NCBI GenBank assembly: GCA_045591885.1
Contig: JAZNTT010000080.1
Coordinates: 1 to 57,825 of the forward strand
Length of the DNA: 57,825 bases
Direction: 5' to 3'
Origin: Eubacteriales bacterium
GTDB taxonomy: Bacteria; Bacillota; Clostridia; Oscillospirales; CAG-272
Shown: positions 3,691 through 32,919 of the stretch, one piece after another
How the letters are laid out: each line of letters opens with the position of its first letter
How positions within the stretch are numbered: position 1 is the stretch's first letter
The notes under the pieces: generated by a model
Databases searched by the model: none
Told to the model about the DNA's origin: nothing
What the model saw: the letters and a program-made list of their open reading frames with translations, nothing else
Translations under genes and position numbers: made by a program

Positions 3691-3703
3691 CGTTCTTCCT
3701 CCC

Positions 3704-14559: not shown

Positions 14560-15415
14560 CCATTACCATCGTACCCGCTCCCTCGTCAGTAAGAAGCTCC
14601 ATAAGGATCGCGTGGGGGATACGGCCGTCCATTATTGTAACGTTCTTTACACCTGCGTTTATTGCTTCAATGCAGCAGTCGACTTTAGGAATCATTCCAC
14701 CCGAAACAATACCGTCATCGTAAAGCTTTTTCGCTTCGGAAACAGTGACTTTAGGAATCAGCGTCGATGGATCGTCCTTATCTCGAAGAATACCTGCTAC
14801 ATCCGTCATCATAATTAGGCGCTCAGCGTCCATAGCTCCCGCAATATATGCGGCTGCAGTATCACCGTTGATATTGTAAACGTTACCCTGACGGTCGGAA
14901 GCCACAGTCGAAATTACGGGAATATAATTCTTTTCAAGAAGGTCAGTTATCGGCTGAGAACGAACCTTTACGATCTCTCCCACAAAACCGAGACGATCGT
15001 CCTTGATCCTTGCCTCGATAATTCCGCCGTCCATACCGGAGAGACCTACGGCGTGTCCGCCCTTCATTTGAAGAAGAGTTACAAGCGACTTGTTGACCTT
15101 ACCTGCAAGGACCATCTGAACGATGTCAACGGTCTCCTTATCGGTAACGCGCAAGCCGTCAACAAACTCAGGCTGCTTTCCGAGCTTCTTCATCATATCG
15201 GAAATCTCAGGTCCGCCGCCGTGAATAAGTACGACCTTAACTCCGATAAGCCAAAGCAAGGCAATGTCTTCCATTACCTGCTGCTTTAGCGTTTCATCTA
15301 TCATGGCGTTGCCGCCATACTTAATTATAACGACCTTGCCGACGTACTGTTTGATATAGGGGAGCGCTTGAGTAAGTATTTCCGCGCGCTCTGCGTTAGA
15401 AACTGATGTGTTCAT
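14552..15415 (-). CDS. argB: Acetylglutamate kinase
   Basis: 287 aa. VIIKYGGNAM, HGGGPEI, NINGDTAA motifs. Confidence 0.95.
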   Translation of the reverse strand: MNTSVSNAERAEILTQALPYIKQYVGKVVIIKYGGNAMIDETLKQQVMEDIALLWLIGVKVVLIHGGGPEISDMMKKLGKQPEFVDGLRVTDKETVDIVQMVLAGKVNKSLVTLLQMKGGHAVGLSGMDGGIIEARIKDDRLGFVGEIVKVRSQPITDLLEKNYIPVISTVASDRQGNVYNINGDTAAAYIAGAMDAERLIMMTDVAGILRDKDDPSTLIPKVTVSEAKKLYDDGIVSGGMIPKVDCCIEAINAGVKNVTIMDGRIPHAILMELLTDEGAGTMVMGE

Positions 15416-15424
15416 ATTAATTCC

Positions 15425-16639: not shown

Positions 16640-16643
16640 TTCA

Positions 16644-17573
16644 TTATCCTTTCAGTGAAAGTCCCGTTGTTTCATCACAACCGAGAACTATGTTCATATT
16701 CTGTATTGCCGCACCCGATGCGCCTTTTCCAAGGTTATCGAATCGAGAAATGAGCAGTATTCTGTCCTCGTTTCCGAGAACCGAGATCTCCATTCCGTCG
16801 TCGTGATCAAATTTAGACGCGGACATAAGTCCGCTTTCCGACGGATCATCGCTGTATTTAACGACAGGTCCGTTATAAATGCTCCTGTAAATCTCTTTAA
16901 TATCATTTGCATCACCCTTGATCTGCCTTGCAAAAATCGGAACGGTTACTTCCATGCCGCAATAGAAATCAGATACTATCGGTGAAAAAATAGGGAGATT
17001 GCTAAGAGACGAAATCACGGACATTTCCTTAAGGTGCTTGTGATTTTGCGTCAGCGCATATTGACGCGGAGCGGAAAGAAGCGGATCACGCATTTCGCTT
17101 TCGTAATCGGCTATCATCTTTTTACCCCCGCCCGAATATCCGGTTATTGAAAAACAGGTCAGAAGCTCGTCCTTCGAAATGACGCCTGCCTCAACAAGCG
17201 GTTGAACAAGAGCGATAAATCCGCTTGCATGGCAACCGGGATTTGCGATTCTCTTGCTTGATTCAATTCGTTTCCTATATCCGTTAAGCTCAGGCATACC
17301 GTAAGTCCAATTTGGGTCTGTCCTGTGAGCCGTCGACGTATCAATGACAACCGGGCCGCCGTTGCCTATATTTATAACCGATTCTCTTGCTGCATCATCG
17401 GGCAAGCATAAAAACACGATGTCAGCAGAGATTGATATTTCTTTTTTAGCATCAGGGTCCTTACGAAGCTCGTCCGGAAGGGAGAGGAGGGTTATATCTT
17501 TTCTTATAGATAGTCTCTCGTGGATGCGCAAACCGGTAGTTCCTGCACTGCCGTCAATAAAAACCTTTGTCAT
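16644..17573 (-). CDS. argC: N-acetyl-gamma-glutamyl-phosphate reductase (short type)
   Basis: 309 aa. GSAGTTG Rossmann motif and active-site NPGCHASG. Confidence 0.9.
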   Translation of the reverse strand: MTKVFIDGSAGTTGLRIHERLSIRKDITLLSLPDELRKDPDAKKEISISADIVFLCLPDDAARESVINIGNGGPVVIDTSTAHRTDPNWTYGMPELNGYRKRIESSKRIANPGCHASGFIALVQPLVEAGVISKDELLTCFSITGYSGGGKKMIADYESEMRDPLLSAPRQYALTQNHKHLKEMSVISSLSNLPIFSPIVSDFYCGMEVTVPIFARQIKGDANDIKEIYRSIYNGPVVKYSDDPSESGLMSASKFDHDDGMEISVLGNEDRILLISRFDNLGKGASGAAIQNMNIVLGCDETTGLSLKG

Positions 17574-18421: not shown

Positions 18422-20308
18422 TTATCGTCTCTTTTCCGCAATTTCAATAACGAGGTCGGAAATGAACTTGTCAACGTCAACAGAGCCGAGGTCGCCGTTC
18501 TTCCAGGAACGAACCGCAACAGCGTTTTCCTCCATTTCCTTATCTCCGATTATGAGCATGTAAGGAGTCTTTGAGAGCTGTGCCTGACGGATCTTGTAAC
18601 CGATCTTTTCGTAACGGTCGTCAACCTCAACGCGCATTCCGAGGTCTTCCATACGCTTAGCGATCTTGTTAGTGTATTCAAGATGCTCGTTTCCAATGGG
18701 AAGAAGCTTTACCTGAACGGGTGCAAGCCACGTCGGGAATGAACCTGCGTACTTCTCAATAAGGTAAGCAAGCGTTCTCTCGTAGCATCCGAGGGATGTG
18801 CGGTGGATGATGTACGGCGTCTTCTTCTGTCCGTCGGTGTCGGTATATTCCATTCCAAACTTTTCAGCGAGAAGCATATCTATCTGAATGGTTACGATGG
18901 TATCTTCCTTACCGAATACGTTCTTATACTGAATATCGAGCTTAGGACCGTAGAAAGCAGCCTCGTCAATACCGATCTCATAGTCGATTCCGATATTGTC
19001 AAGAATGTTCTTCATGACGTTCTGGGCTTCATTCCACTGCTCAGCTGTTCCTTCATACTTCTTAGTATTGTTGGGATCCCACTGAGAGAAACGGAACGTG
19101 CAGCCCTCAAGCATTCCAACGGTATCGAGCACGTATTTAGCAAGCTCAAGACAGCCCTTGAATTCTTCTTCAAGCTGTTCGGGACGAAGAACGAGGTGTC
19201 CTTCGGAGATCGTAAACTGACGGACACGGATAAGTCCGTGCATCTCTCCCGAATCCTCGTTGCGGAAAAGGGTAGAGGTCTCGCCGAATCTCATGGGAAG
19301 CTCACGGTAGGAACGCGGCTTGTTAAGGAATACCTGATACTGGAAGGGGCAGGTCATGGGACGGAGAGCGAAGCATTCCTTGGTTTCATCATCAGCATCG
19401 CCGAGAATGAACATACCGTCGCGGTAGTGATCCCAGTGTCCCGAGATCTTATAAAGGTCACGCTTAGCCATGAAAGGAGTTTTGGTAAGGAGGTAACCTC
19501 TCTTCTGTTCCTCATCCTCGATCCATCTCTGAAGAAGCTGAACAACTCTTGCACCCTTGGGAAGAAGGATCGGGAGGCCCTGTCCGATTGTATCAACGGT
19601 AGTGAAAAGCTCAAGGTCGCGTCCGAGCTTGTTGTGGTCGCGCTTTCTTGCTTCTTCAACCTGAGTGAGATACTCATTAAGTGCGTCTTTGTTAGGATAT
19701 GCTGTGCCGTAAATACGCTGAAGCATTTTATTTTGCGAATTTCCTTCCCAATATGCACCCGTACACTGAGTAAGCTTAAACGCCTTTACAGCGCCCGTGC
19801 TGTGAAGATGCGGACCTGCACAAAGATCGGTAAACTCACCCTGACGGTAGAAGGAAATATCGCTGCCCTCGGGGATTCGGTCTATAAGAAGCACCTTGTA
19901 AGGCTCGTTCTTTTCTTCCATGAGCTTTTTAGCTTCGTCGCGGGGAAGAGTAAAGCGCTCAATGATAAGGTTCTCCTTTACGATCTTCTTCATCTCCGCC
20001 TCAATCTTAGTAAGGATCTCGGGTGAAAAAGAAACGTCACTGTCGATGTCATAATAAAAGCCGTTGTCAACGGACGGACCAATCGTGAGCTTCGCATCGG
20101 GATAAAGACGCTTTACCGCCTGCGCAAGAATGTGAGATGCGGTGTGCCAAAAGACCTCTTTTCCTTCCTTGCTTTCGAAGGTAACGGGAGTTACTTCACA
20201 GTCACCGATCTCAGTAGAAAGAGCGATCACGGTATCTCCGCATTTTGCCGCAAGAACTTCGCGGCTCATAAGCTCTTTTTCTTTCAAGAATTCATAAGCA
20301 GTTTTCAT
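18422..20308 (-). CDS. thrS: Threonine--tRNA ligase
   Basis: Starts MKTAYEFLKEK. TGS domain, editing-domain HTASHILAQAV, class II core. RBS GGAGGG lies before the ATG at 20308; the ORF-track extension covers the leader. Confidence 0.95.
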   Translation of the reverse strand: MKTAYEFLKEKELMSREVLAAKCGDTVIALSTEIGDCEVTPVTFESKEGKEVFWHTASHILAQAVKRLYPDAKLTIGPSVDNGFYYDIDSDVSFSPEILTKIEAEMKKIVKENLIIERFTLPRDEAKKLMEEKNEPYKVLLIDRIPEGSDISFYRQGEFTDLCAGPHLHSTGAVKAFKLTQCTGAYWEGNSQNKMLQRIYGTAYPNKDALNEYLTQVEEARKRDHNKLGRDLELFTTVDTIGQGLPILLPKGARVVQLLQRWIEDEEQKRGYLLTKTPFMAKRDLYKISGHWDHYRDGMFILGDADDETKECFALRPMTCPFQYQVFLNKPRSYRELPMRFGETSTLFRNEDSGEMHGLIRVRQFTISEGHLVLRPEQLEEEFKGCLELAKYVLDTVGMLEGCTFRFSQWDPNNTKKYEGTAEQWNEAQNVMKNILDNIGIDYEIGIDEAAFYGPKLDIQYKNVFGKEDTIVTIQIDMLLAEKFGMEYTDTDGQKKTPYIIHRTSLGCYERTLAYLIEKYAGSFPTWLAPVQVKLLPIGNEHLEYTNKIAKRMEDLGMRVEVDDRYEKIGYKIRQAQLSKTPYMLIIGDKEMEENAVAVRSWKNGDLGSVDVDKFISDLVIEIAEKRR

Positions 20309-20320
20309 ATAAAAACCCTC

Positions 20321-20532
20321 CAAAAAATAAGATAACACCCCGAACAATAATCTGTTCGGGGTGTGGAAATTACAAGAATCGCCGCACGGTTCCACCCAAT
20401 ACTTTAACTCATTTGTGTTCGGTTGTGTCACGGCGGTGGTACCTTATATACGCTGCCGACGCAGTTTTCAGCTACCCTGCGCTCTCTGTACGGTGCATTT
20501 ACATAAGACGTGTCCGTCGAGGTATTTCTACA
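20321..20532 (-). promoter_or_regulatory. T-box leader (Thr) with terminator, upstream of thrS
   Basis: Minus strand shows AGAGAGCGCAGGGTAGCTGAAAA (stem I), an ACC candidate specifier, the T-box core GGGTGGAACCGTGCGG (plus 20382-20397), and hairpin ACACCCCGAACA..TGTTCGGGGTGT plus T-run. Promoter TTGACA(20562-20567)-17-TAAAAT(20539-20544). Confidence 0.85.
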
Positions 20533-20601
20533 TAGCCAATTTTAACATCAAAAGGCGGATTTGTCAAGCACTTTTTTGATAACCTTTCTTTATCATTTAT
20601 G

Positions 20602-20630
20602 TTGACAATTATTTTTACATTTGGTATAAT
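20602..20630 (+). promoter_or_regulatory. alaS promoter (consensus sigma-A type)
   Basis: TTGACA(20602-20607)-17nt-TGgTATAAT(20622-20630). Confidence 0.75.
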
Positions 20631-20672
20631 TAGTGAGTTAATAAAATGTATTCCCTTTTTGGAGGTTTCACA

Positions 20673-23303
20673 ATGAAGTGGACTGGCTTAAATGAACTGC
20701 GCGAAAAGTACCTTTCTTTTTTTGAAAGCAAAGGCCATCTTCGCCACAAGAGTTATCCTCTTGTACCGATCAACGATAAATCTATCCTTCTCATAAACGC
20801 GGGTATGACTCCCCTTAAAAAGTATTTTACGGGAGAGCTTGAGCCGCCCCGCCACAGAATGACGACCTGTCAGAAGTGTATTCGAACGCCCGATATTGAC
20901 CGAGTTGGTATTACTGCGCGTCACGGTACATTCTTTGAAATGCTCGGTAACTTCTCGTTTGGTGATTACTTTAAGAGAGAAGCTATAAATTGGGCATGGG
21001 AATTTATTACCGAGGTGCTCGAGCTTCCGAAGGATCGTCTTTGGGTAACTATTTATCTTGACGATGATGAGGCGTATGACATCTGGGCAAACGAGATCGG
21101 CGTTGATCCTGCTCATATTGTCCGTCTCGGAAAGGAAGATAACTTCTGGGAGCACGGCTCCGGTCCTTGCGGTCCTTGCTCCGAGATACACTTTGACCGC
21201 GGTCCTGAATACGGATGCGGCTCTCCCGACTGTAAGCCGGGATGCGATTGCGACCGATTTATGGAATTCTGGAACCTCGTTTTCACGCAGTTCGATAACG
21301 ACGGTAACAATAACTATACTCGTCTCGCAAAGCCCAATATCGACACAGGTATGGGTCTTGAGCGTCTTGCTTGCCTTATGCAGGGTGTAAACAACCTTTT
21401 CGAGGTCGACACTGTACGTAATATAATGAAGGCGGTTGAGGACGCGGCTAACGTTAAGTACGGAGATAACGAAAAGAATGATATTTCGCTCCGCGTTATA
21501 ACCGACCATATCCGTTCGTCGAGCTTTATGATCTGCGACGGTGTTCATCCTTCGAATACCGGACGCGGATACGTTCTTAGAAGACTTCTTCGCCGTGCCG
21601 CAAGACACGGTAGAATGCTTGGTATTTCCGGTACGTTCCTTTCCGATATTTGCACAGTAGTTGCAAGAGAAAACTATTCCGAGTATCCCGAGCTTACCGA
21701 AAAGCTTGATTTCATCAAGAGAGTTATCGAGAATGAGGAAAAGGCGTTTGCCGCTACAATCGACGCAGGTCTTTCTATCCTTTCGAATCTTATTCGCAAG
21801 GCAACCGAGGACGGCATGAAGGTTCTTTCGGGTGACGACGTTTTCCGTCTTTACGATACATACGGCTTCCCGCTTGACCTTACACGTGAGATTGCTGAGG
21901 AGCACAAGCTCGAGATCGACGAAGAGTCCTTCAAGCGCTTCCTCAATGCACAGAAGCAGAGATCAAAGGATGCAAGATCTAACATTTCCGGTTGGAGCGA
22001 CGCTTCCAAGTCGATCATAACCGCCTTTGATAAGACCGAATTCTGCGGATACGATAATACCTCGTGCGAGGCAAAGGTAATCGCAATTCTCGACGGCGAC
22101 GAGTCTGTCGATGAAATCACAGAAGGCGAGTTTACTCTTATTACCGATAAGACCGTCTTCTATGGAGAGGGCGGCGGTCAGGTCGGTGATACCGGTATCA
22201 TCTATGATGAAGACACGATGATTACCGTAACCGATACGAAGAAGGTTGACGGCGTTTATATTCACATCTGTTCTCTTGCAAGCGGCGACGTCAAGGTTGG
22301 TGATACCGTTAAGCTTGAAATCAACATAGGCAGAAGAGTCTCGATCATGAGAAACCATTCGGCATGCCACATGCTTCAGGCGGCGCTTCGCCAGGTCCTC
22401 GGAAACCACGTTGAGCAGGCGGGTTCTTACGTCGATGAAAGCAGAGTTCGCTTTGACTTTACACATTTTGCGGCTCTTACTGATAAGGAGCTTCGCGAAG
22501 TCGAGGCACTTGTAAACTACCATATTCTTCTCGGCGAAACTATCAATACCGTTGAGACCGACATCGAAACTGCGAAGAAAGAGGGTGCAATGGCGCTCTT
22601 CGGAGAAAAGTACGGTAGTACTGTCCGTATGGTCAAGATGGGCAACTTCTCGACCGAGCTTTGCGGAGGTACTCACCTTGATAACACGGGCAAGGCAGGA
22701 CTTTTCAAGATCATTTCCGAGACCTCGGTTGCGGCAGGCGTAAGAAGAATCGAAGGAACGACAGGTCTTGGCGTTCTTGCGCTTCTTGCTGAAAAGGACA
22801 ACCTGATCGGCGATACCGCGAAAGAGCTTAAGGTCGGAAATCCTCTCGATCTTCCCAAGAAGGTCGTTCAGCTTCAGACTGAGCTTAAGGCGGCTAAGAG
22901 CGAGATCGAATCGCTCAATAGCAAGCTTGCGGCAGGTCAGACCGATGCTATCAAATCAGGAATGAAGACCGTAAACGGCATCAATCTTATTGTTCACACG
23001 CTTAAGGATGCAGCATCCGATATGCCAAGAAGTATTTGTGACGAGCTTAAAGCAAGTGACGACAATGTTGTTGCGGTGATTGCGCTCGTTAACGGTGGCA
23101 AGCTCACGTTCAGTGCTTGCTGCGGAAAAAATGCAGTTGCGAAGGGCGCACACGCAGGAATGATCCTAAAGAACGTCAGCGCCATCTGTAACGGTGGCGG
23201 CGGTGGTCGTCCCGACAGCGCTTCGTCGGGCGGTAAGGACATTTCCAAGCTTGATGAGGCTCTTAATGCAGTAGAAGAAATACTTCTGTCTCAGCTTAAA
23301 TAA
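20673..23303 (+). CDS. alaS: Alanine--tRNA ligase
   Basis: Starts MKWTGLNELREKYLSFFESKGH. Editing-domain HxxxH/CxxxH motifs and a DHHA1-like C-terminus. RBS GGAGG lies before the ATG at 20673. Confidence 0.95.
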   Translation: MKWTGLNELREKYLSFFESKGHLRHKSYPLVPINDKSILLINAGMTPLKKYFTGELEPPRHRMTTCQKCIRTPDIDRVGITARHGTFFEMLGNFSFGDYFKREAINWAWEFITEVLELPKDRLWVTIYLDDDEAYDIWANEIGVDPAHIVRLGKEDNFWEHGSGPCGPCSEIHFDRGPEYGCGSPDCKPGCDCDRFMEFWNLVFTQFDNDGNNNYTRLAKPNIDTGMGLERLACLMQGVNNLFEVDTVRNIMKAVEDAANVKYGDNEKNDISLRVITDHIRSSSFMICDGVHPSNTGRGYVLRRLLRRAARHGRMLGISGTFLSDICTVVARENYSEYPELTEKLDFIKRVIENEEKAFAATIDAGLSILSNLIRKATEDGMKVLSGDDVFRLYDTYGFPLDLTREIAEEHKLEIDEESFKRFLNAQKQRSKDARSNISGWSDASKSIITAFDKTEFCGYDNTSCEAKVIAILDGDESVDEITEGEFTLITDKTVFYGEGGGQVGDTGIIYDEDTMITVTDTKKVDGVYIHICSLASGDVKVGDTVKLEINIGRRVSIMRNHSACHMLQAALRQVLGNHVEQAGSYVDESRVRFDFTHFAALTDKELREVEALVNYHILLGETINTVETDIETAKKEGAMALFGEKYGSTVRMVKMGNFSTELCGGTHLDNTGKAGLFKIISETSVAAGVRRIEGTTGLGVLALLAEKDNLIGDTAKELKVGNPLDLPKKVVQLQTELKAAKSEIESLNSKLAAGQTDAIKSGMKTVNGINLIVHTLKDAASDMPRSICDELKASDDNVVAVIALVNGGKLTFSACCGKNAVAKGAHAGMILKNVSAICNGGGGGRPDSASSGGKDISKLDEALNAVEEILLSQLK

Positions 23304-23313
23304 TTATAATTTT

Positions 23314-23347
23314 AGAGCACCGTTTTAATGACGGTGTTCTATTTTTA
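23314..23347 (+). terminator. alaS terminator
   Basis: AGAGCACCGT..ACGGTGTTCT hairpin plus T-run. Confidence 0.75.
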
Positions 23348-23368
23348 TTATTAAATTATGAATATTTC

Positions 23369-23397
23369 TTGACAAAATCGGTACTTTGTTATACAAT
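23369..23397 (+). promoter_or_regulatory. Promoter of the PadR-led cluster
   Basis: TTGACA(23369-23374)-17nt-TACAAT(23392-23397). Two GGTACT repeats flank the -10. Confidence 0.65.
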
Positions 23398-23446
23398 ATA
23401 CTGGTACTATGCTATGCAAGGTATCAATATTTACGGAGGAAAAGAT

Positions 23447-23776
23447 ATGACGTTTGATAAATCCCAGCTGATGCGCGGTACCCTTGAGGGATGTATTCTC
23501 AAAATTATCAGTGAAAAGACAACGTATGGATACGAGATACTTCTTCGTTTGAAGCAGCTTGGCTTCTCGGATATCTCCGAGGGCACTATATATCCTTTGC
23601 TTCTGCGCCTTGAAAAGCAGGGAAGCATTGTTTCAAAACTTTTACCGTCTCCGCTTGGTCCCAAAAGGAAGTACTATTCAATAACCGATGAGGGAACAAT
23701 GTATCTTGCGTCATTTATAAACGCTTGGACACAAATTTCTGATTCCGTAGCTGTTATTATCGGAAGGGAGGACTGA
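23447..23776 (+). CDS. PadR-family transcriptional regulator
   Basis: 109 aa. LEGCILKIISEKTTYGYEI..GTIYPLLLRLEKQG winged-helix signature. RBS GGAGGA lies before the ATG at 23447. Confidence 0.85.
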   Translation: MTFDKSQLMRGTLEGCILKIISEKTTYGYEILLRLKQLGFSDISEGTIYPLLLRLEKQGSIVSKLLPSPLGPKRKYYSITDEGTMYLASFINAWTQISDSVAVIIGRED

Positions 23777-23779
23777 GAC

Positions 23780-24457
23780 ATGAAAAAGGATATTAAGAAT
23801 TCGTGGCGAGTTTTAACTAAAGAGAATAGGAAAATTATAATGAAGATCGCTCACTATCTTGAGAGCAGATATATAAATCAGGTTGCAGGCGAGGAAATAT
23901 TTTCCGACATCGTCGGTATGGCGCTTGAATGTCAGGAACGCGGCGATTCGTTTGCTAATATGATCGGATCAGACCACGAAGCGTTCTGTCGAGAGCTTAT
24001 TAGAAATTCCCCTCGACAGCACTTTCATGAAAGAATACTTCACGTTCTTCACTGGTTCTTGCTCTTCGCAACGTTTATTATGCCCGGCTTGTTTATTGTT
24101 GAATTTCTGATGCCGCATTATTTTCCCGGCAGTGTTGACGGTCTCATTTTTACCGTTAAGCTGTCGTATATTCTCAAATATTATATAATAATGTTGGTTC
24201 TTGTCATCGGATGGTTCATTGTCCGTATGCACACCTATAAACCAACCGAATACGTTCTTGGCACCTATTTCGCAGTGTTCATGCTATTCTTTCTTTTTAC
24301 GGATGGTGTTCTGGCATTTATAATGAACGATACTGTTTTAGAAATCAATATAATAATCTGGACAATAGTTGTTGCAATTCTTTTGGTTATTTGTGATCTC
24401 ACCAGAAGAGTTATTGCAATGAGTATTGCATATGCAAAAAACAAAAATAACAAATAA
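23780..24457 (+). CDS. PadR-associated membrane protein (soluble helical N-domain plus ~4 TM)
   Basis: 225 aa. Begins 3 nt after the padR stop. This architecture is typical of membrane partners encoded next to PadR regulators. Confidence 0.6.
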   Translation: MKKDIKNSWRVLTKENRKIIMKIAHYLESRYINQVAGEEIFSDIVGMALECQERGDSFANMIGSDHEAFCRELIRNSPRQHFHERILHVLHWFLLFATFIMPGLFIVEFLMPHYFPGSVDGLIFTVKLSYILKYYIIMLVLVIGWFIVRMHTYKPTEYVLGTYFAVFMLFFLFTDGVLAFIMNDTVLEINIIIWTIVVAILLVICDLTRRVIAMSIAYAKNKNNK

Positions 24458-24470
24458 AGAGGTACGATTT

Positions 24471-25352
24471 ATGGAACAGAGAAAGCGCCGCAGAGGTGAC
24501 AGAAAAGACGGATACCTTGTCCGAGACATCGACTCGATGCATGCACTTGCACCGTATATGCTGCCTAATCGCGCTGATAATGAGGCGTTTCTTACCGAAT
24601 CGTTTGATATGACCAATGTTATAACTTATATCAACGGTAAAAATGCCGATAACCCTGAATTCAAGTATACATTCTTTCATTTTATCGTTGCGGCCATCGC
24701 TAAAACGATCGTCCTTCGTCCGAAGATGAATAGGTTTTATTCCGGTCACCGTCTCTATGACAGAAAAGACCTCCTTTTCTCATTTGTAGTAAAAAAACAG
24801 TTTTCTGACAATGCCGAAGAGGTTCTTGCCACGATTAAAGTAGATCCTGACTGTGACGTTCCTCCGATCGAGCAAGTGTATGAAAAAGTAAAGAAGATTG
24901 TTTTTAGTGTCCGCAAGGAAAATAAAACTGATTCAACAACTGAAAAAATGGATATACTCCTTAAAATACCTCGTCCAATTCTTCGCTTAGCGATAAAGGT
25001 GCTTCGATGGCTTGAATACCACGGCAAATATCCCAAATCTCTTATGAGAGATGACCCGTATTATTCCAGTGTTTTTCTTTCTAATCTCGGAAGCATTAAA
25101 ATGAGTGCGGATTATCATCATCTTGCAAATTGGGGAACAAATTCTATATTCGGTATCATCGGTGAGATGAAACCGATGCCATTCTACGGTGCTGATGGTA
25201 GTGTTACAGTAAAGCAAGGTTTAAATATTAGTCTTACCATTGACGAGAGAATTGCAGACGGTTTCTACTTTGCTAACAGCATAAAGATTCTTCGAAAGCT
25301 TATTGAAAACCCGGCTCTTATAGACGAACCGATAAATAAACCCGTCGTATAA
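24471..25352 (+). CDS. Stand-alone acyltransferase of the 2-oxoacid-dehydrogenase E2 / CAT / condensation fold
   Basis: 293 aa. No lipoyl or E3-binding domains. C-terminal ...LTIDERIADGFYFA aligns to the DHRxxDG / HHxxxDG active-site motif. RBS AGAGG lies before the ATG at 24471. Confidence 0.7.
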   Translation: MEQRKRRRGDRKDGYLVRDIDSMHALAPYMLPNRADNEAFLTESFDMTNVITYINGKNADNPEFKYTFFHFIVAAIAKTIVLRPKMNRFYSGHRLYDRKDLLFSFVVKKQFSDNAEEVLATIKVDPDCDVPPIEQVYEKVKKIVFSVRKENKTDSTTEKMDILLKIPRPILRLAIKVLRWLEYHGKYPKSLMRDDPYYSSVFLSNLGSIKMSADYHHLANWGTNSIFGIIGEMKPMPFYGADGSVTVKQGLNISLTIDERIADGFYFANSIKILRKLIENPALIDEPINKPVV

Positions 25353-25364
25353 AGGAGATGGAAA

Positions 25365-27110
25365 ATGGAGAACGTTAAAGCCCCTTGGCTTAATAATTAC
25401 GGCGACGTGCCGCATACACTTGAATATAAACAGGGAAGTATGTGGGAAGCCGTTCTCGATATGGCCAAGCTTTATCCTGAATACATATCATTCGTATTTA
25501 TGGGTAAAAAAACAAAGTATTCGGAATTTGTAAAACAGGTAGACTCTTGCGCAAAAGCGCTTAAAAGCATTGGCGTTAAGGAAGGCGATCGCGTAACAAT
25601 CTGCATGCCGAACTGCCCTCAGGGAATTATTATGTTCTATGCTGTCAACGTTGTAGGCGGAATTGCAAACATGATACACCCCCTCTCGGCGGAAAAGGAA
25701 ATTGCTTTCTATCTGAATGATTCTAAGAGCGTAGCTGCAATTACTCTTGATCAGTTTTATCCTAAGTTTGAAGCAATAAGAGATCAGGTTTCAATCAACA
25801 CTCTCATAATTGCGGATATTAAAGACGCGCTATCTCCGGTTATGAAGTTAGGCTATGCGCTGACATCCGGCAGAAAAATCAAGAAGATTCCTGCTGATGC
25901 GCCTATAATTAGATGGAACGATTTTATTAAGGCCGGTAAATCTTACCATGGAAAATATAAGGTAAAGCGAGTTGCGTCCGATCCCGCTGTTACACTTTAT
26001 AGCGGCGGTACAACAGGCGTAAGCAAGGGAATCTTGCTGTCTAACCTTAACTTTAATGCTCTTGCTGCACAGATAATTGCGACAAACCCTGTCTTCTGTC
26101 CCGGCGATACAATGCTTGCGGCGATGCCTATATTCCATGGATTCGGTCTTGGCGTAAGCATTCATTCCATGCTTGCAAACGGCGGAAAATGTGTTCTTGT
26201 ACCAAGATTTACTCCGGCAAGCTATGCTAAATTGATTGTTAAATATCGCTGCAACTTTATGGCCGGCGTTCCGACACTTTATGAAGCGCTTCTTCGACAG
26301 CCCGTCATGGAGGGGGCGGACCTATCTTGTCTCAAGGGCGTCTACAGTGGCGGAGATTCGCTATCGGTTGAACTTAAAAAGAAACTCGATGCTTTCTTGA
26401 CAGAGCATAATGCAACAGTTAAGGTAAGAGAGGGATACGGTACTACAGAATGTGTTACCGCGAGCTGCCTTACTCCTCTCCATCTCGCTAAGGAGGGAAG
26501 TATCGGTCAACCGTTCCCCGACACCTTCTATAAGATTGTCAGGCCGGGAACACAAGAGGAGCTTCCATACGGCGAGGACGGCGAAATCTGTCTTTCCGGG
26601 CCAACTACCATGATGGAATACGTTGGTCACCCTGAGGAAACCGCTCAAACCTTGCAAATTCACGCAGACGGAAGAAAGTGGGTTCATACCGGAGACCTTG
26701 GACATATGGACGAGGACGGATTCATCTATTTCAAGCAGCGAATTAAGAGAATGATTATTACAAGTGGATATAATGTCTATCCGTCTCAGCTTGAAAATAT
26801 ATTGGATGCACATGAGATTGTACAGATGAGCTGTGTAATTGGTGTTCCCGACCCGATAAGGGTGCAGAAAATTAAGGCATTCGTTATGCTAAAGCCGGGC
26901 ATTCAGAAGACCGTCGAGAACAAATCTGTACTTATTGAATATTGCAAAAAGAACATAGCAAAATACGCAATTCCTTATGACATCGAATTCCGCGATCAGC
27001 TTCCCAAGACCTTGGTCGGTAAGGTAGCATATAGGGTCCTCGAAGAAGAGGAGAACGCTAAACGTACAGAGCAAGAAAATACTACAGATGCTCTGACAGC
27101 CGCTAACTGA
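25365..27110 (+). CDS. Adenylate-forming enzyme (acyl-CoA/acyl-carrier-protein ligase family)
   Basis: 581 aa. YSGGTTGVSKG, GYGTTE, TGDLGHMDEDGF, GKVAYRVL motifs of the ANL superfamily. Confidence 0.85.
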   Translation: MENVKAPWLNNYGDVPHTLEYKQGSMWEAVLDMAKLYPEYISFVFMGKKTKYSEFVKQVDSCAKALKSIGVKEGDRVTICMPNCPQGIIMFYAVNVVGGIANMIHPLSAEKEIAFYLNDSKSVAAITLDQFYPKFEAIRDQVSINTLIIADIKDALSPVMKLGYALTSGRKIKKIPADAPIIRWNDFIKAGKSYHGKYKVKRVASDPAVTLYSGGTTGVSKGILLSNLNFNALAAQIIATNPVFCPGDTMLAAMPIFHGFGLGVSIHSMLANGGKCVLVPRFTPASYAKLIVKYRCNFMAGVPTLYEALLRQPVMEGADLSCLKGVYSGGDSLSVELKKKLDAFLTEHNATVKVREGYGTTECVTASCLTPLHLAKEGSIGQPFPDTFYKIVRPGTQEELPYGEDGEICLSGPTTMMEYVGHPEETAQTLQIHADGRKWVHTGDLGHMDEDGFIYFKQRIKRMIITSGYNVYPSQLENILDAHEIVQMSCVIGVPDPIRVQKIKAFVMLKPGIQKTVENKSVLIEYCKKNIAKYAIPYDIEFRDQLPKTLVGKVAYRVLEEEENAKRTEQENTTDALTAAN

Positions 27111-27252
27111 TTTGTTTGATCCTCAAGCGACGTGTTAGCTTATATTAATCAAAACGTTATAAATTGATCTGTGTTAGTTCATAAAATTGGCTTATTATAT
27201 ACTTGTTAAGTTTCTATGAGTCAAGTTATACTTAACAATAAAGGAGACACTT

Positions 27253-27492
27253 ATGTATCAGGAAATCTTGGAAAAAATAATTTCTACCATCGTAGACGAG
27301 CTTGGAATTGACAGAGAGGAAATTAATGAGAACTCAAAGATCGTGTCAGATCTTGATGTCAATTCACTTGAGCTTCTTAACGTTATAATGGCAATAGAGG
27401 AGGATTTCGAAATTACCTTCGAAGAGGGCAGACTTAGGAAGATAAAGACTGTTGGAGATATCGTTAAATACGTTGTTGAGCTCAAAGCGTAA
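27253..27492 (+). CDS. Free-standing acyl/peptidyl carrier protein
   Basis: 79 aa. DLDVNSLELLNVIMAIEEDF matches the carrier-protein helix II with the phosphopantetheine Ser (NSL). RBS AAGGAG. Confidence 0.8.
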   Translation: MYQEILEKIISTIVDELGIDREEINENSKIVSDLDVNSLELLNVIMAIEEDFEITFEEGRLRKIKTVGDIVKYVVELKA

Positions 27493-27506
27493 AGGAGGAT
27501 TAGGAT

Positions 27507-29183
27507 TTGTCAAACTCAAAAGCGCGGATAAGCAAAAAGAATAAATCGACCGGTTATTATGAGGTCGAGCCGGTAATAAGTATCAAAGAAATGCTAAAAA
27601 AAGCAAAAAATGAAGCAGGCGATTGGGATGCGTACCAGTATAAATTAAACGAAACCGAGACCAAGCATGTTTCATATAATGAGTTTTATCAAAATACTGA
27701 AGATCTTGGTGCAGCGCTTTGCAATCTTGGCCTTGGCAATGCGCATATAGCTTGCGTAGGTGATAACAGTTATCCTTGGATAGTCGTATACCTTACTGTT
27801 CTTAAATCTGAGGGAGTTTTTGTGCCGATTGACAAGGAGTTGCCCGAAGATGATATGTTTAGAATCATAAATGATAGCGATAGCACTGCTATTTTCTTTG
27901 CGTCACGATTCGAGGAGACTATTATATCTAACAAAGATAAACTTCCAAATATTAAATATTTCATTTCACTTGATAGGGAAGAGTCGAACGATGATTTTCT
28001 ATCGATGCGCCAGCTGATTTCCGAAGGATCTGTACTCGATAAATCTAAATATGATTCCTTGCAATCAAACGAAAATGATCTGAAGCTTCTTGTTTATACG
28101 TCCGGAACCACAGGTATAGCGAAAGGTGTTATGCTTACTGAACATAACCTAATTTCCGGAGTATATTACGGACTTCACGTTTCGCAAGTCTTTGGTACAG
28201 GATTGTCTGTCTTACCTTACAACCATACGTATGAAGCAGTATGCGATATCCTTGTTTCAATTCACAAGCATACCACACTGTGCATAAATGATTCTCTTAA
28301 AGCAGTGCTAAAAAATCTGCAGTTCTATAAACCGGATTATATATACATTGTACCTGCTTTTTTGGAGTTATTTTACTCGGGAGTTCAGAAGAACATTCGC
28401 AAACAGAGAAAAGAGAAGCTTGTAAATAAGATGATCGGCATATCAAACGGTTTGAGAAAGATCGGAATTGATATGCGAAAGGTTTTCTTCAAACAAATTA
28501 CTGACGCTTTTGGTGGAAATTTAAAGAAAATCGTGTGTGGCGGCGCTCCGATTCGTCCCGAAATCGGCAAATTCTTCGGAGATATTGGTATTTGGGTTAT
28601 TGGAGGATACGGAATAACTGAGTGTTCGCCTCTTGTTTCTGTTAATGACGAACAGGCCAATGATTACAACACAGTTGGTCGGCGTTTACCTTGCCTTGAG
28701 TGGAGGGTGGATTCTCCTAACGAAGAGGGAATAGGTGAGATACAAGTTAAAGGCGATGTTGTTATGCTTGGATACTACAAGCAACCCGACAAGACCGATG
28801 AGGTTCTTAAAGATGGATGGTTTTCAACCGGTGATTACGGATATATTACCCCCGAAGATTGGTTAGTGATAACGGGACGCAAGAAAAACATCATAGTTCT
28901 CACAAACGGAAAGAACATTTATCCGGAAGAGATTGAGAGCATCATAATGCAAATTGAATATGTATCTGAGGTCATTGTCAGCGGTATCAAAAACGAACAC
29001 GGGCAGGAGACCGGTTTGCAGGCAGAAGTGTATCTTTCTGAAGAGCATACTGAGGAGCACGTTCTGGACGACATACAAAATAAGCTGGATATTTTGCCGG
29101 GATACAAAAATATCTCTAAAGTGATTATACGCGACGAACCATTTGCAAAAACAACATCTAACAAGATAAAAAGAAAATATTAA
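27507..29183 (+). CDS. Adenylate-forming enzyme (long-chain fatty-acid ligase-like)
   Basis: 558 aa, TTG start after AAAGGAGGA. YTSGTTGIAKG, GYGITECSP, TGDYGYI, GRKKNIIVLTNGKNIYPEEIE. Confidence 0.85.
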   Translation: MSNSKARISKKNKSTGYYEVEPVISIKEMLKKAKNEAGDWDAYQYKLNETETKHVSYNEFYQNTEDLGAALCNLGLGNAHIACVGDNSYPWIVVYLTVLKSEGVFVPIDKELPEDDMFRIINDSDSTAIFFASRFEETIISNKDKLPNIKYFISLDREESNDDFLSMRQLISEGSVLDKSKYDSLQSNENDLKLLVYTSGTTGIAKGVMLTEHNLISGVYYGLHVSQVFGTGLSVLPYNHTYEAVCDILVSIHKHTTLCINDSLKAVLKNLQFYKPDYIYIVPAFLELFYSGVQKNIRKQRKEKLVNKMIGISNGLRKIGIDMRKVFFKQITDAFGGNLKKIVCGGAPIRPEIGKFFGDIGIWVIGGYGITECSPLVSVNDEQANDYNTVGRRLPCLEWRVDSPNEEGIGEIQVKGDVVMLGYYKQPDKTDEVLKDGWFSTGDYGYITPEDWLVITGRKKNIIVLTNGKNIYPEEIESIIMQIEYVSEVIVSGIKNEHGQETGLQAEVYLSEEHTEEHVLDDIQNKLDILPGYKNISKVIIRDEPFAKTTSNKIKRKY

Positions 29184-29187
29184 TCTA

Positions 29188-29224
29188 TAAAACTCTCCGC
29201 GATAAATCTTTGCGGAGAGTTTTA
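29188..29224 (+). terminator. Terminator closing the acyl-activation cluster
   Basis: ACTCTCCGC..GCGGAGAGT hairpin plus T-run. Confidence 0.75.
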
Positions 29225-29411
29225 TAACATATAAAATTTACAGAGGGTAGTGCAATTTATTCTATTTAACGCAAATGCCTAATTGTACTAAATTAAGATT
29301 TAACTTAATATGGGGAATGACTTGAAGCGTAATTTTGTATTTGCGGCATCAGCTAAGTAATTTAATTTTTATGGGTTCCTATCGGTATATTTCATCTATA
29401 TTCAATAATAT

Positions 29412-29797: not shown

Positions 29798-29835
29798 AAC
29801 AAGCGCGCGAGCATTCGTTTGCTCGCGCGCTTGTT
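29798..29835 (-). terminator. Terminator after the DUF4097-like gene
   Basis: AACAAGCGCGCGAGC..GCTCGCGCGCTTGTT 15-bp GC-rich stem abutting the stop codon. Confidence 0.7.
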
Positions 29836-30725
29836 CATTCTATTATTTCAAGATTATTGTCTTTAATTACAACTGTTGCGTCAGTTGCATCTATCTTGAC
29901 AAGGCACTGCTGGATATCTGACGGTGTGATTATCTTTAATTGCCCATCAGCAATTCCGGATTCATTATAGTTTAGGGTGCTATTTTCGGTCTTTACGTTA
30001 TATGAAACAAATTCAGCGGCATAATTGGTAGTGTCAATGTTGATATTGCCGCCTACTAAATTTGCATTTAAGGTTGTTGCTTTGGTGTTGTTTACGTTTA
30101 GATTGCCTGCACTGACCTTAGCGTTGATTACAGACGAGGTTACGACATCGGTAAAAGTTGCGTTTCCTTCACTTACCGTTATGTTATAATCAACGGTTTC
30201 GTTCCAGATGTTTTTCAGTGTAACATTTCCGTTTCTGACGGTCAAATTAAGTGTTTTTATGCTTGACGCATCTGAAATGTAGATTGTAACGCTTCTTTTA
30301 TGTCCCTTTAAGGGTTTATCTGCAAAGAAATAGCGAAGTCCTTTAAATCTTAGACCACCGCCGCTCATGTCGAGAAATGAGGAAAGACCGCTAACTGTGC
30401 CATCAACTGAAACGCTTCCGCCTGTTAGCGTTGTAGAATAGCCGTAAGGATCAAAGTTTTTGAGCTCAACATAGCTGCTTTTTGCAGATCCGATTACCGT
30501 TACGTCTACGTTAGAAAAATTGAGCGAGAGCTTAGAAAGCTTTTGATCTGACAGGCTATAAGCATATACAATGTCGCCCTTTTTATTGCGCGACTGTTCG
30601 TAGATTGAAACACCTTGAGCGTCTGCCATAGAAGATGCTATAGAGCAAGTAAACCATCCGGTGAACAAGAGAACCGCGGCGAGTGCAAGGAAAATTAATG
30701 ACGTTGGCTTCATAATCCGATACAC
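29835..30725 (-). CDS. DUF4097-like beta-helical (putative adhesin/LiaG-like) protein with N-terminal anchor
   Basis: 296 aa. N-terminal TM/signal anchor, then repetitive segments rich in G-N-V/I-T/N. Confidence 0.55.
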   Translation of the reverse strand: MYRIMKPTSLIFLALAAVLLFTGWFTCSIASSMADAQGVSIYEQSRNKKGDIVYAYSLSDQKLSKLSLNFSNVDVTVIGSAKSSYVELKNFDPYGYSTTLTGGSVSVDGTVSGLSSFLDMSGGGLRFKGLRYFFADKPLKGHKRSVTIYISDASSIKTLNLTVRNGNVTLKNIWNETVDYNITVSEGNATFTDVVTSSVINAKVSAGNLNVNNTKATTLNANLVGGNINIDTTNYAAEFVSYNVKTENSTLNYNESGIADGQLKIITPSDIQQCLVKIDATDATVVIKDNNLEIIE

Positions 30726-31621
30726 TCCTTCTTAAGATTTACATATATCTCACGATATTTACGAATTACAAAGTGGACAAACTTCAGAAGCCATTTTGCT
30801 ACGATTGGCATGAATCTAACTGCGAAATTGTAAACGAGTATTCCGATTGCAAGAGCAAAAGCACCGATCATTATAGCAACGCCGCATTCATATAGCCCAA
30901 TCGGTACGCTTGTCAGCATTTGAGATACTCCAAATATAAGTCCAAAGACAGATACGAGGGTTCCTGCAGCTGTTACAAAAATAAGCGTGCCGATAGAAAT
31001 AAGAATCACAATTGCTACGCCGAAGAACATCAAACCGAACCCGAAAGCAGTACCGACTAAAACCGCGAGGGTAATCGGGAGAGCTGCCGCAAACATTATC
31101 CAGAATTTGCGTCTGTTTTGCTCGATGATTTCCGGATCAATCGGAGCTGGGGTAACCGAGGAATCCGTGTCAGATTTTACGATCTCACCTCGCTTAGTAC
31201 CGTGAGCCTCGGTGAGTTTTTCGTCAACGTCTTCCACTTCAAGCTTGTTAGATTCGGCTTTTTCAAATACTACAACATCATCATCAAGGTTGTCTGAGGC
31301 ATTATCTGTTATGTGTGCTATTTCCGGTTCGATATTATTTTCATTTGATTCACGGTTGATTATGACCGGCTCATTTTTGTCGCTCGGATTGATAGCATTT
31401 TCCTCTTTGGCTTCCTTGATAGCTTTTTCGGTCATTCGTTTAATTCTTGCCGCAACTTTATCAAGGTCACCGAGCTTGGCAATCTCTGCCGCAACCTCTT
31501 CATCGTTCTTTCCTTTGAAATATCCGTCAAATTGAGTCAGGTGCCGATCAATGTATTCACGGCTTAGGCCGATGTTCTGAAGACGTTCGGTCAATTCGGC
31601 GTAAAAAGTCTGCTTGTCCAT
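30710..31621 (-). CDS. DUF1700-like membrane protein
   Basis: 303 aa. N-terminal MDKQTFYAELTERL..REYIDRHL..DGYF, an acidic linker, and ~4 C-terminal TM helices. Overlaps the downstream gene by 16 nt. Confidence 0.55.
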   Translation of the reverse strand: MDKQTFYAELTERLQNIGLSREYIDRHLTQFDGYFKGKNDEEVAAEIAKLGDLDKVAARIKRMTEKAIKEAKEENAINPSDKNEPVIINRESNENNIEPEIAHITDNASDNLDDDVVVFEKAESNKLEVEDVDEKLTEAHGTKRGEIVKSDTDSSVTPAPIDPEIIEQNRRKFWIMFAAALPITLAVLVGTAFGFGLMFFGVAIVILISIGTLIFVTAAGTLVSVFGLIFGVSQMLTSVPIGLYECGVAIMIGAFALAIGILVYNFAVRFMPIVAKWLLKFVHFVIRKYREIYVNLKKECIGL

Positions 31622-31744: not shown

Positions 31745-32356
31745 ATGAGAATGAGAAAAAAGAAGCATGGTGCCGAAAGAATTTCTGCTTGCGGCGAATA
31801 TTTTGTTCCCACAGGCACAGTAATAAGCGATTGTCCGATTGAACTCGAGATAGGCTGCGGGAAAGGTTCATTCATATCCGGACTATCAAAAAAATATCCG
31901 CAAAAGAATTTTGTTGCAATGGAGCGAGTATCGGATGTCATTCTTCTCGCCGCAGAACGTATTAAGGCAGAGGATGCAAAGAACGTTAGGTTTATAATTG
32001 GAGACGCAAGGAATCTAAGAGAGTACTTCCCTGTCTCCAGTATATCGAGAATTTATCTTAACTTCTCTGATCCGTGGCCCAAAAAGGGATATGCGAAGCG
32101 TCGCTTGACACATAGAGCGTTTCTTGAGTTGTATAAGGAGATACTTGTCCCTAACGGAGAAATCGCTTTTAAAACCGATAATATTGGTCTGTTTGAGTTT
32201 TCGCTTGAGGAATTTACTGCTGCGGGCTTTAAATTAAGAGAGCTTACATATGACCTTCATAACAGCGAATATAATGATGACAATATAGTTACAGAATACG
32301 AAAGAAACTTCTCTGAAAAAGGCTTTAAGATAAACAGAGTTGTCGCTTATCTTTGA
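31745..32356 (+). CDS. trmB: tRNA (guanine-N7)-methyltransferase
   Basis: IELEIGCGKGSF SAM motif and NFSDPWPKK. Start is ambiguous (ATG at 31745 or 31751; ORF track gives 31730). Confidence 0.85.
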   Translation: MRMRKKKHGAERISACGEYFVPTGTVISDCPIELEIGCGKGSFISGLSKKYPQKNFVAMERVSDVILLAAERIKAEDAKNVRFIIGDARNLREYFPVSSISRIYLNFSDPWPKKGYAKRRLTHRAFLELYKEILVPNGEIAFKTDNIGLFEFSLEEFTAAGFKLRELTYDLHNSEYNDDNIVTEYERNFSEKGFKINRVVAYL

Positions 32357-32919
32357 TCATCTTTAATTCTCTTATTATCGAATTTTGAAACAACGAGACC
32401 GCCCAGCTTGGTACCGACGATTCCAAATATAGTTCCAAGGAATATACCGGCTAAAACGTCAGTGGGATAGTGAACGTATAGATATAGGCGCGAAAATGCA
32501 ACGGCAATTGCAATTATAGTGGCGCCAATTGCTATCGACTTATATTTTCCTTTAAGCATAATCAGCAGAACGACGGCAGTCTCGAAGACAATTAGAGTAT
32601 GGCCCGACGGAAACGAATAATCGGAAAGACGCTCAATAAGAATATCTGCACCAGTCAAGTCATATGGTCTGATTCTTCCAACAACATTTTTTAGAAACAG
32701 ATTTCCGATTAATCCGCCGCAAATAAATGCAATTCCCATAGAAAGGCCAATTTTTCTTGTTTTATTAAAAATCAAAAGAATAACTGCAATTACGATCGGA
32801 ACAATACCGTGATCTCCGATTTTTGTAATCAGCGAAAGCATCTTGTCAAGAAATTCGCACTTTAAGTTATCCTGAATAAATTCAAGAATATTTAAATCTA
32901 CCTTAGTGATTGGATTCAT
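32347..32919 (-). CDS. PAP2-family phosphatase (undecaprenyl-diphosphatase/BcrC-like)
   Basis: 190 aa. KxxxxxxRP, PSGH, SRxxxxxHxxxD motifs (RIRPYD, FPSGHT, SRLYLYVHYPTD). Confidence 0.8.
   Translation of the reverse strand: MNPITKVDLNILEFIQDNLKCEFLDKMLSLITKIGDHGIVPIVIAVILLIFNKTRKIGLSMGIAFICGGLIGNLFLKNVVGRIRPYDLTGADILIERLSDYSFPSGHTLIVFETAVVLLIMLKGKYKSIAIGATIIAIAVAFSRLYLYVHYPTDVLAGIFLGTIFGIVGTKLGGLVVSKFDNKRIKDDQR

Follow-up and report, generated by a model that had tools for sequence, protein, structure and literature searches.

Sphingolipids produced by gut bacteria influence host ceramide pools and immunity, and they have been credited almost only to the Bacteroidetes. In Proteobacteria, a dedicated acyl carrier protein (ACP) and an acyl-ACP synthetase (AcpR/AasR) feed serine palmitoyltransferase (Spt; PMC9386255), and the cluster to which these genes belong (Spt, AcpR, CerR, AasR and bCerS; CC_1162-1165 in Caulobacter, and also in E. 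coli BL21(DE3); PMC9386255, PMC11087976) serves here as a comparison system; the acpR-aasR gene pair has been described in delta-proteobacteria too. The Bacteroidetes counterparts are Spt (Sphingobacterium structure 3a2b; NCBIfam model NF047600) and the reductase KdsR (BT_0972; PMC9278070), the enzyme type that the KdsR model describes. This study concerns a six-gene cluster on a 57,825-nt stretch of DNA from Eubacteriales bacterium (assembly GCA_045591885.1, contig JAZNTT010000080.1), which in its entirety is called the window. The cluster encodes, in order, a PadR-family regulator, a membrane partner, a stand-alone acyltransferase (E2L), a first ANL adenylating enzyme (ANL1), an ACP and a second ANL enzyme (ANL2). 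It is best described as a Gram-positive, gut-Clostridia variant of bacterial sphingolipid-type lipid synthesis that is truncated at this locus.

Like the proteobacterial cluster, the relatives of the window locus unite in one operon Spt, a reductase, a small dedicated ACP and, next to it, an ANL enzyme, and the window keeps the last two of these. Unlike it, they have a KdsR-type short-chain dehydrogenase/reductase (SDR) in place of CerR, a second ANL enzyme and a Gram-positive host, and an E2-fold protein is found in the operon with no bCerS/YghO-like gene, while the window itself is devoid of Spt and reductase. The likeness between the clostridial operon and the proteobacterial system appears to be one of function only. 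The Bacteroidetes enzymes are the best family matches of the relatives' Spt and reductase, but the clostridial genes form a tight, movable pair, located within or outside the operon of E2L, ANL1, ACP and ANL2, and their products score below the equivalog cut-offs. As it stands, the window holds an incomplete sphingolipid cluster: Spt, the reductase and a ceramide synthase of the bCerS type are not present, E2L being no more than a candidate replacement for the ceramide synthase.

A further point of reference is provided by the fatty-acid-amide clusters of gut Clostridia (OaaA, OaaACP, OaaC), in which OaaC is a true non-ribosomal peptide synthetase (NRPS) condensation domain with the motif DHxxxDS (PMC13310621). 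At the domain level these clusters resemble the window in combining a free-standing fatty-acid-activating enzyme, an ACP and a transferase of the CAT superfamily, and attack of an amine on an acyl thioester could be common to both. They differ from the window in that the latter has E2L (PF00198, with the motifs DERIADG and YHH), two ligases and an ancestry that involves Spt and a reductase. Since the PF00668 condensation domain that defines the fatty-acid-amide NRPS-like family is absent from the window, the locus is not a member of that family. The parallel with these clusters that was drawn in a preliminary description of the locus is, in view of the missing PF00668, the DERIADG motif and the Foldseek matches to E2 structures, an analogy at most.

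Deletion origin of the locus

The window locus derives, with little room for doubt, by deletion from an operon that contained Spt and a KdsR-like reductase. In L172 (GCA_965352285.1; loci compared with the window are given numbers preceded by L), the gene order is argJ, argC, thrS, alaS, PadR, membrane partner, E2L, ANL1, Aminotran_1_2 (391 aa), SDR (263 aa), ACP and ANL2, followed by DUF378, DUF4097, trmB and PAP2, and both flanks match those of the window from alaS to trmB. A second locus, L173, agrees with L172 in all eight genes and in the neighbours downstream. Alignment by blastn pairs positions 20001-27064 of the window with 5517-12594 of L172, and 27289-29317 with 14688-16707. Between these blocks, L172 has 2093 nt encoding Spt (12674-13849) and the reductase (13842-14633), versus 224 unrelated, AT-rich nt in the window.

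In a bootstrapped neighbour-joining tree based on E2L and ANL1, the seven taxa that lack Spt and reductase (the window, L001-L005 and L008) are monophyletic with 98.5% bootstrap support, while the full-operon loci L172 and L173 are the immediate outgroups (100%) and further full-operon loci lie outside these. Because the gap-bearing species constitute one clade, a single deletion produced the arrangement of the window. The earlier view of the cluster as a self-contained, minimal C-like/A/T/A design is consequently abandoned: synteny with L172 and L173, together with the tree, identifies it as a deletion derivative. In uncultured gut Clostridia, the complete version is a lipid operon of eight genes, probably ceramide-making, with the order PadR, membrane partner, E2L, ANL1, Spt, KdsR-like reductase, ACP and ANL2; the window cluster is its reduced form.

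Further losses occurred within the clade after the deletion, namely of ANL2 in L003 and L004 and of ACP-ANL2 in L002, which amounts to three independent events in seven species. E2L-ANL1 and the PadR-membrane partner pair are retained in all seven. The arrangement E2L-ANL1-ACP-ANL2 also arose independently in L010 and in L034/L044. Taken together, the relatives form a natural deletion series, from the full operon to one without Spt and reductase, then without ANL2 and finally without ACP too, which can guide the choice of genes to be combined when each step is to be assigned.

By every sequence measure available, the Aminotran_1_2 protein of the relatives is a serine palmitoyltransferase. Its profile scores 481 bits against the Sphingobacterium enzyme (3a2b/8guh), whereas KBL-type enzymes reach at most 310 bits, cysteate acyltransferase 279 bits and BioF about 220 bits. 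The best NCBIfam model for the protein is the CFB-type serine palmitoyltransferase NF047600 (494-504 bits, below the curated cut-off). The SDR finds its best NCBIfam model in KdsR (NF049977) with 224-243 bits against a cut-off of 400, and is predicted to be a KdsR-like 3-ketosphinganine reductase.

A search seeded with Spt returned 80 metagenome loci (L092-L171), in which Spt and reductase are nearly always adjacent to each other; genes at the high-GC loci were assigned by tblastn, gene calls there yielding antisense artefacts. A MarR-type gene lies upstream of Spt and reductase in several of these loci and a PadR-membrane pair in others, including L094 and L096, where the same pair as in the window directly precedes Spt and reductase alone. 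In L167 (1544-7149), E2L, ANL1, Spt, ACP and ANL2 occur with no reductase gene between Spt and ACP, a partial state of the operon. Close Clostridia-type Spt relatives (72-82% identical) forming a stand-alone pair with a KdsR-like reductase were seen in many gut-metagenome contigs (for example L097 7540-9961 and L096 1731-4703) and point to a widespread capacity for sphingoid-base synthesis among gut Clostridia. Many uncultured members of this group appear to carry a Bacteroidetes-type Spt and a KdsR-like reductase, often in an operon with two ligases, a private ACP and E2L. A preprint states that, among the gut phyla, serine palmitoyltransferase is confined to the Bacteroidetes (bioRxiv 10.1101/632877); at the level of sequence, the clostridial relatives with Spt contradict that particular statement.

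The locus was compared in 80 species-level genomes, 74 of which had sufficient flanking sequence. ANL1 immediately follows E2L in 72 of the 74, with a median gap of 50 nt. The two remaining species, L038 (E2L at 3131-4003) and L042 (E2L at 5223-6095), instead have two different conserved genes behind E2L, with products of about 305 and 470 aa. Accessory genes are less frequent among the 80 species: PadR is found in 19, always with the membrane partner, ACP in 16 and ANL2 in 11. Spt (about 391 aa) comes right after ANL1 in 12 species, with the SDR (about 263 aa) next in ten of these, and the loci bearing Spt are scattered over the branches of the E2L-ANL1 tree. Conservation of gene order, which had been put forward as a check on the preliminary description, thus holds for E2L and ANL1 and not for the whole arrangement, in which ACP-ANL2 is accessory. 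The system is composed of two-gene modules that have been shuffled between genomes: PadR-membrane partner, E2L-ANL1, Spt-reductase and ACP-ANL2. It follows from this shuffling that the link between E2L and Spt is frequent but facultative rather than obligate, and that the genome from which the window derives may still carry Spt and the reductase elsewhere.

E2L and its partners

E2L shares with the E2 component of the 2-oxoacid dehydrogenases (PF00198) the same fold and the conserved D-x-R-x-x-D-G frame. It differs from this component in lacking the catalytic His, the lipoyl and subunit-binding domains (Pfam, over 293 aa) and the E1/E3 partners, and in having an ANL ligase as its partner instead. 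In the Pfam search PF00198 was the only match, PF00668 remaining unmatched, and no NCBIfam model describes the protein. An AlphaFold2 model constructed from 69 diverse homologs (pLDDT 95.8) was compared with the PDB using Foldseek. The 50 best listed matches are all E2-type and nearly all are catalytic cores of 2-oxoacid dehydrogenases, the best being 3mae (E = 7e-15). According to the model, extra helices at approximately residues 125-195 would distinguish E2L from the shorter E2 cores. No condensation-domain chain was matched by the E2L profile in a sequence search of the PDB at E up to 1, and the assignment of E2L as an NRPS condensation domain is ruled out by Pfam, by the DERIADG motif and by the E2-core fold.

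The E2 motif DHRxxDG takes the form DERIADG in E2L (D258-E259-R260-I-A-D263-G264), with Glu259 aligned to the catalytic His. Of 150 family representatives, those that bear the motif have Glu, Asp, Asn, Gln or Ser here, and none has His. The D-x-R-x-x-D-G frame itself and an N-L-G-S segment are common to E2L and E2 cores. E2L is a non-canonical E2, having an E2 core fold with the catalytic His replaced. The original assignment to an E2/CAT/condensation fold devoid of lipoyl and E3-binding domains therefore stands with respect to the E2 core and the missing domains, but the catalytic His of all three families has been replaced. A His-His pair (YHH motif) lies 42 residues upstream of DERIADG and aligns with the WFTP segment of Bacillus E2p. 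Residues H216, H217, D258, R260, D263 and G264 are invariant across 69 sequences that are 27-80% identical to E2L. To judge from the alignment rather than from coordinates, H216-H217 may supply the catalytic base.

The E2L family is large, comprising 6353 clusters at 90% identity and 2386 at 50%, and its members are labelled in public records as E2 subunits or hypothetical proteins. In full-text literature on Clostridia sphingolipids, stand-alone E2 acyltransferases and Bacteroides ceramide synthase, neither this family nor the operon was found described. Some members are fused to membrane-spanning segments, to a GtrA-type domain or to a WS/DGAT wax-ester/diacylglycerol acyltransferase, and these fusions point to lipid substrates.

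Outlying members of the family provide several separate observations. In L086 (116-5270), the gene for an E2L::WS/DGAT fusion (P0212, 773 aa) has an alkaline ceramidase gene (PF04734 + PF17048) on one side and an alpha/beta hydrolase gene on the other; stand-alone relatives of the P0212 type are labelled Kofleriaceae (Myxococcota), and the fusion beside a ceramidase is a single case, suggestive and lightly weighted. An Aminotran_1_2 gene near an E2L of the Kofleriaceae type was considered as Spt and rejected, as it has no Spt-type similarity and by eye resembles an ordinary aminotransferase. More distant relatives have no ANL partner, occur among housekeeping or polysaccharide genes or as tandem E2L genes, and are mostly uninformative. 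One distant member, at 27% identity, is found in a cultured organism, Vescimonas fastidiosa pMM35_01 (Oscillospiraceae; KI236_RS09030, L175 7980-8813), where it is annotated as a hypothetical protein and adjoins glycerate kinase and polysaccharide genes; it offers a possible experimental handle.

The best NCBIfam matches of ANL1 are long-chain-fatty-acid--CoA ligases (384 bits, below the cut-offs) and its closest solved structure is A. fulgidus FadD-1 (3g7s, 8e-59). At the domain and motif level it appears to be a FadD-type, acyl-CoA-synthetase-like ANL enzyme, with scores below all NCBIfam equivalog cut-offs. The ACP scores 60.3 bits on the AcpP equivalog model TIGR00517 against a cut-off of 70.45, is absent from the close relative L002 and from all loci that have the E2L-ANL1 pair alone, and shares 37-40% identity with the carrier proteins encoded in the L081 and L084 operons. 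By these comparisons it is a dedicated carrier protein and not the housekeeping AcpP. ANL2 is distant from all solved ANL enzymes. Its motifs, as read from the sequence, are intact (YTSGTTGIAKG, GYGITE, TGD and the C-terminal NKIKRK), and it adjoins a carrier protein at every locus where it occurs, making it a candidate acyl-ACP synthetase for the neighbouring ACP. An orthologous relationship between ANL2 and AasR was considered and rejected, the similarity being generic to ANL enzymes. In the membrane partner of PadR, roughly the first 90 aa form a conserved cytosolic domain, behind which lie hydrophobic segments. An alignment of 13 sequences of this protein has 21 invariant columns, and the ortholog in L173 likewise has a weak DUF1048 match. 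The membrane partner may serve as a sensor.

Proposed pathway and competing explanations

In the pathway that we propose for the full operon, ANL2 would load a fatty acid onto the dedicated ACP, Spt would join an activated fatty acid with serine to give 3-ketosphinganine, and the KdsR-like reductase would convert this product to sphinganine. A second fatty acid would be activated by ANL1, probably as the acyl-CoA, and E2L would move this acyl group onto the amine of the long-chain base, resulting in a dihydroceramide-like lipid. PadR and the membrane partner would regulate the operon. The presence of two ligases fits a lipid with two acyl chains. The version in the window would N-acylate long-chain bases made elsewhere, whether by relocated Spt and reductase genes or obtained by uptake, or it would act on another amine. 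The substrates, the direction of acyl flow and the role of E2L as a ceramide synthase are all predicted. We assign a probability of roughly 40-50% to this full mechanistic reading, in which E2L is an N-acyltransferase of long-chain bases. The simpler route first suggested for the cluster, from ligase to carrier protein to transferase, is compatible with all of the evidence as a general logic.

With YghO taken as the representative of bCerS, no bCerS/YghO-like or CerR-like gene was detected in 174 loci totalling 2.1 Mb, the window included, and E2L is therefore the sole acyltransferase recognised in these operons. A bolder version of the proposal holds that uncultured, Oscillospirales-like gut Clostridia use the eight-gene operon to make dihydroceramides from scavenged fatty acids and that E2L represents a third, independently evolved class of ceramide synthase, after eukaryotic CerS and bacterial bCerS, with its catalytic His moved to the His-His pair and with a window form that only N-acylates; we regard this version as doubtful. 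If E2L does prove to be the N-acyltransferase, the consequences would be a new class of enzyme for ceramide synthesis and new producers of sphingolipids in the gut. For the window alone the significance is more modest, in that it represents a module for activating and transferring acyl groups, with no local gene for the acceptor. The cluster nonetheless brings to light a pathway and an enzyme family that can be tested and have apparently not been described.

Several observations weigh against the proposed N-acylation of long-chain bases. No Spt or reductase gene was detected by tblastn in the window, so the pathway cannot run from this locus alone. Salvage would be one source of the base, but uptake of labelled sphinganine in mice was almost confined to Bacteroides, with Firmicutes among the unlabelled fraction (PMC7910519), which speaks against salvage being widespread in Firmicutes. 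In most species no Spt is found within 8 kb of E2L-ANL1, and distant E2L relatives occur in unrelated gene contexts. Seen from the other side, most close relatives of the Spt-reductase pair stand alone, with no E2L within their flanks, although E2L would be expected beside most of them, and this lowers confidence in an obligate link. These stand-alone pairs also have no ACP nearby; ACP-ANL2 need not, therefore, serve Spt. The repeated loss of ACP-ANL2, or of ANL2 alone, and the independent origins of E2L-ANL1-ACP-ANL2 elsewhere make the role of ACP-ANL2 ambiguous. Resemblance to the proteobacterial enzymes is slight, ANL1 and ANL2 being 23-24% identical to AasR of E. coli BL21 and the ACP 26% identical to AcpR. 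Finally, E2L is devoid of the canonical catalytic His, and the placement of H216/H217 in the active site rests on alignment.

Some of the same observations would be accommodated by a role in the salvage of fatty acids into ordinary membrane lipids. Here ANL1 would turn exogenous fatty acids into acyl-CoA, E2L would exchange the acyl group from CoA to the phosphopantetheine arm of an ACP, ACP-ANL2 would be a parallel, direct route to acyl-ACP, and an adjacent Spt, being of the Bacteroidetes type that requires acyl-CoA, would merely be supplied with it by ANL1. The native chemistry of the E2 core fold is indeed acyl exchange between CoA and a thiol carried on a swinging arm, ANL1 is FadD-like, and the occurrence of E2L-ANL1 without Spt or a dedicated ACP in most species is as expected for a general function. 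Moreover, the L081 and L084 operons have an ACP without ANL2, so that another factor must load that ACP. However, salvage would leave the full operon without an N-acyltransferase and would render ANL2 redundant, and at the catalytic position members of the E2L family never have His. Firmicutes, furthermore, usually take up fatty acids via the fatty-acid kinase route. We consider salvage unlikely. A similarly low probability is given to a synthase of fatty-acid amides or esters with a non-sphingoid acceptor, in which a ligase would load the ACP or CoA and E2L would acylate a soluble amine (a polyamine or a neurotransmitter-like compound) or an alcohol, to produce a signalling or surface lipid; this would be an analogy of function with the Oaa clusters, not homology. 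The combination of ANL, ACP and CAT-fold transferase is the functional set of OaaA, OaaACP and OaaC, and purifying selection acts on the four-gene arrangement without Spt, which has at least three separate origins. In 13 compared loci (for example L013 10664-12393, L017, L018, L022 and L027), a spermidine-synthase-fold protein (PF01564, 29.8 bits), a second amine-producing neighbour, is encoded behind E2L-ANL1 in the same orientation, often followed by an EamA transporter. It could be a second amine-supplying module for E2L and weakly supports the idea that E2L acylates whichever amine the neighbouring module supplies. Yet E2L and the condensation domains found in the fatty-acid-amide clusters are not homologous, no amine-producing gene is present in the 57.8-kb window, and the immediate ancestors of the window locus had Spt and reductase between the same genes, which makes a long-chain base the most economical acceptor.

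The losses of ANL2 in L003 and L004 and of ACP-ANL2 in L002, as independent events, could also be taken as signs of a decaying remnant, one whose role was lost with Spt and the reductase and whose remaining genes are disappearing. This is very improbable. All six genes of the window are intact, full-length open reading frames (ORFs) with their motifs preserved, and non-synonymous divergence (dN) from L001, L005 and L008, which share the deletion, is 0.04-0.13 while synonymous sites are saturated; synonymous divergence is saturated for most gene pairs, and the comparison supports low dN only. The six genes are not pseudogenes. E2L-ANL1 and the PadR-membrane partner pair persist in every species of the deletion clade, and the ANL1-ACP spacers of L001, L005 and L008, where ACP-ANL2 has been retained, have the short motif GTTCA.AAAA in common.

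Layout and surroundings of the locus

The window DNA and Pfam bear out the gene inventory of the preliminary description, with six genes on the plus strand at the positions in Table 1 and intergenic gaps of exactly 3, 13, 12, 142 and 14 nt. The consensus promoter and the terminator that it placed at 23369-23397 and 29188-29224 are likewise present, as an 11/12 site and a hairpin, respectively.

Table 1. Positions of the cluster's genes and signals in the window
Feature	Position	Strand	Evidence
Promoter-like site TTGACA-17-TACAAT	23369..23397	+	11/12 consensus matches; predicted function
PadR-family transcription regulator	23444..23776	+	PF03551, 76 bits; 110 aa from ATG after GGAGG
Membrane partner of PadR	23780..24457	+	DUF1048, 22 bits (below cut-off), N-terminally, then predicted membrane-spanning segments
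E2L, stand-alone 293-aa acyltransferase with E2-core fold	24471..25352	+	PF00198, 47.5 bits, C-terminal part of the model only
ANL1, FadD-like (predicted) fatty-acid-activating enzyme	25365..27110	+	PF00501 + PF13193
Deletion scar, 224 nt	27065..27288	+	blastn collinearity with L172
Dedicated (by sequence comparison) acyl carrier protein, 79 aa	27253..27492	+	PF00550; Ser38 in motif NSL
ANL2, second, divergent ANL adenylating enzyme	27507..29183	+	PF00501 + AMP-binding_C_3
Terminator hairpin ending the cluster	29186..29226	+	RNA fold: 17-bp stem, 7-nt loop

The promoter-like site ahead of PadR is joint-best in the 9 kb that were scanned, a region in which such sites are not enriched (23 observed versus 21.2 expected from shuffling). 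Immediately upstream of it is the terminator hairpin of alaS (23313-23341, -17.9 kcal/mol). An ORF for PadR can be read from 23369, but it overlaps the promoter, and the ATG at 23444, which follows GGAGG, is therefore the likely start. At the other end of the cluster, the terminator hairpin has a folding energy of -25.1 kcal/mol (z = -9.55), which none of 200 shuffled sequences equalled, and is followed by a weak U-tract (UUUUAUA). A consensus scan missed this hairpin because its arms are 9-10 nt apart in the DNA and the loop limit of the scan was 8 nt.

A second promoter-like site, TTGTTA-18-TATACT (27203-27232), is located inside the 142-nt gap between ANL1 and ACP, and ACP-ANL2 may accordingly form a transcription unit of its own. 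It is overlapped by a perfect 9-bp inverted repeat upstream of ACP at 27203-27238 (TTGTTAAGT, 18 nt, ACTTAACAA). This repeat is not found in the corresponding spacers of L001, L005 and L008 and folds no better than shuffled sequence.

The remaining genes of the window are housekeeping genes: pheST, dnaX, recR, argCJBD, thrS, alaS, trmB, hom, infB, nusA, mfd and pth. No fab, ketosynthase (KS), acyltransferase (AT), beta-oxidation or E1/E3 genes occur across its 57.8 kb, in agreement with the initial judgement that the cluster represents neither fatty-acid synthesis nor a complex of the pyruvate dehydrogenase type.

Three features downstream of the cluster were noted. A 40-nt element at 29279-29318 (TAATTGTACTAAATTAAGATTTAAC.TAAT...GGGAA), which gave no Rfam match, is near-invariant in six species, whereas the intergenic DNA surrounding it does not align. 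It is situated between the terminators of ANL2 and DUF378 and consists of a promoter-like sequence (TTGTAC-17-TAATAT) followed by GGGAA. Directly after the element, a 55-aa ORF was called in L172, and the window has an ORF of 16 codons only. A PAP2 phosphatase/transferase gene on the minus strand (32347-32919, 88 bits) also gives weak matches to PAP2_3 and to PAP2_C, which we take to be the sphingomyelin-synthase-type model. The region of this gene is collinear with L003, L004 and L172, and in the operon of the L081 type a PAP2_3 gene comes immediately after the ACP. Lastly, a DUF4097 (toastrack) protein and a 303-aa membrane-like protein are encoded downstream of the cluster on the minus strand (29835-31621) in conserved synteny; pairs of DUF4097 and membrane proteins are typically envelope-stress modules that work with PadR-like regulators.

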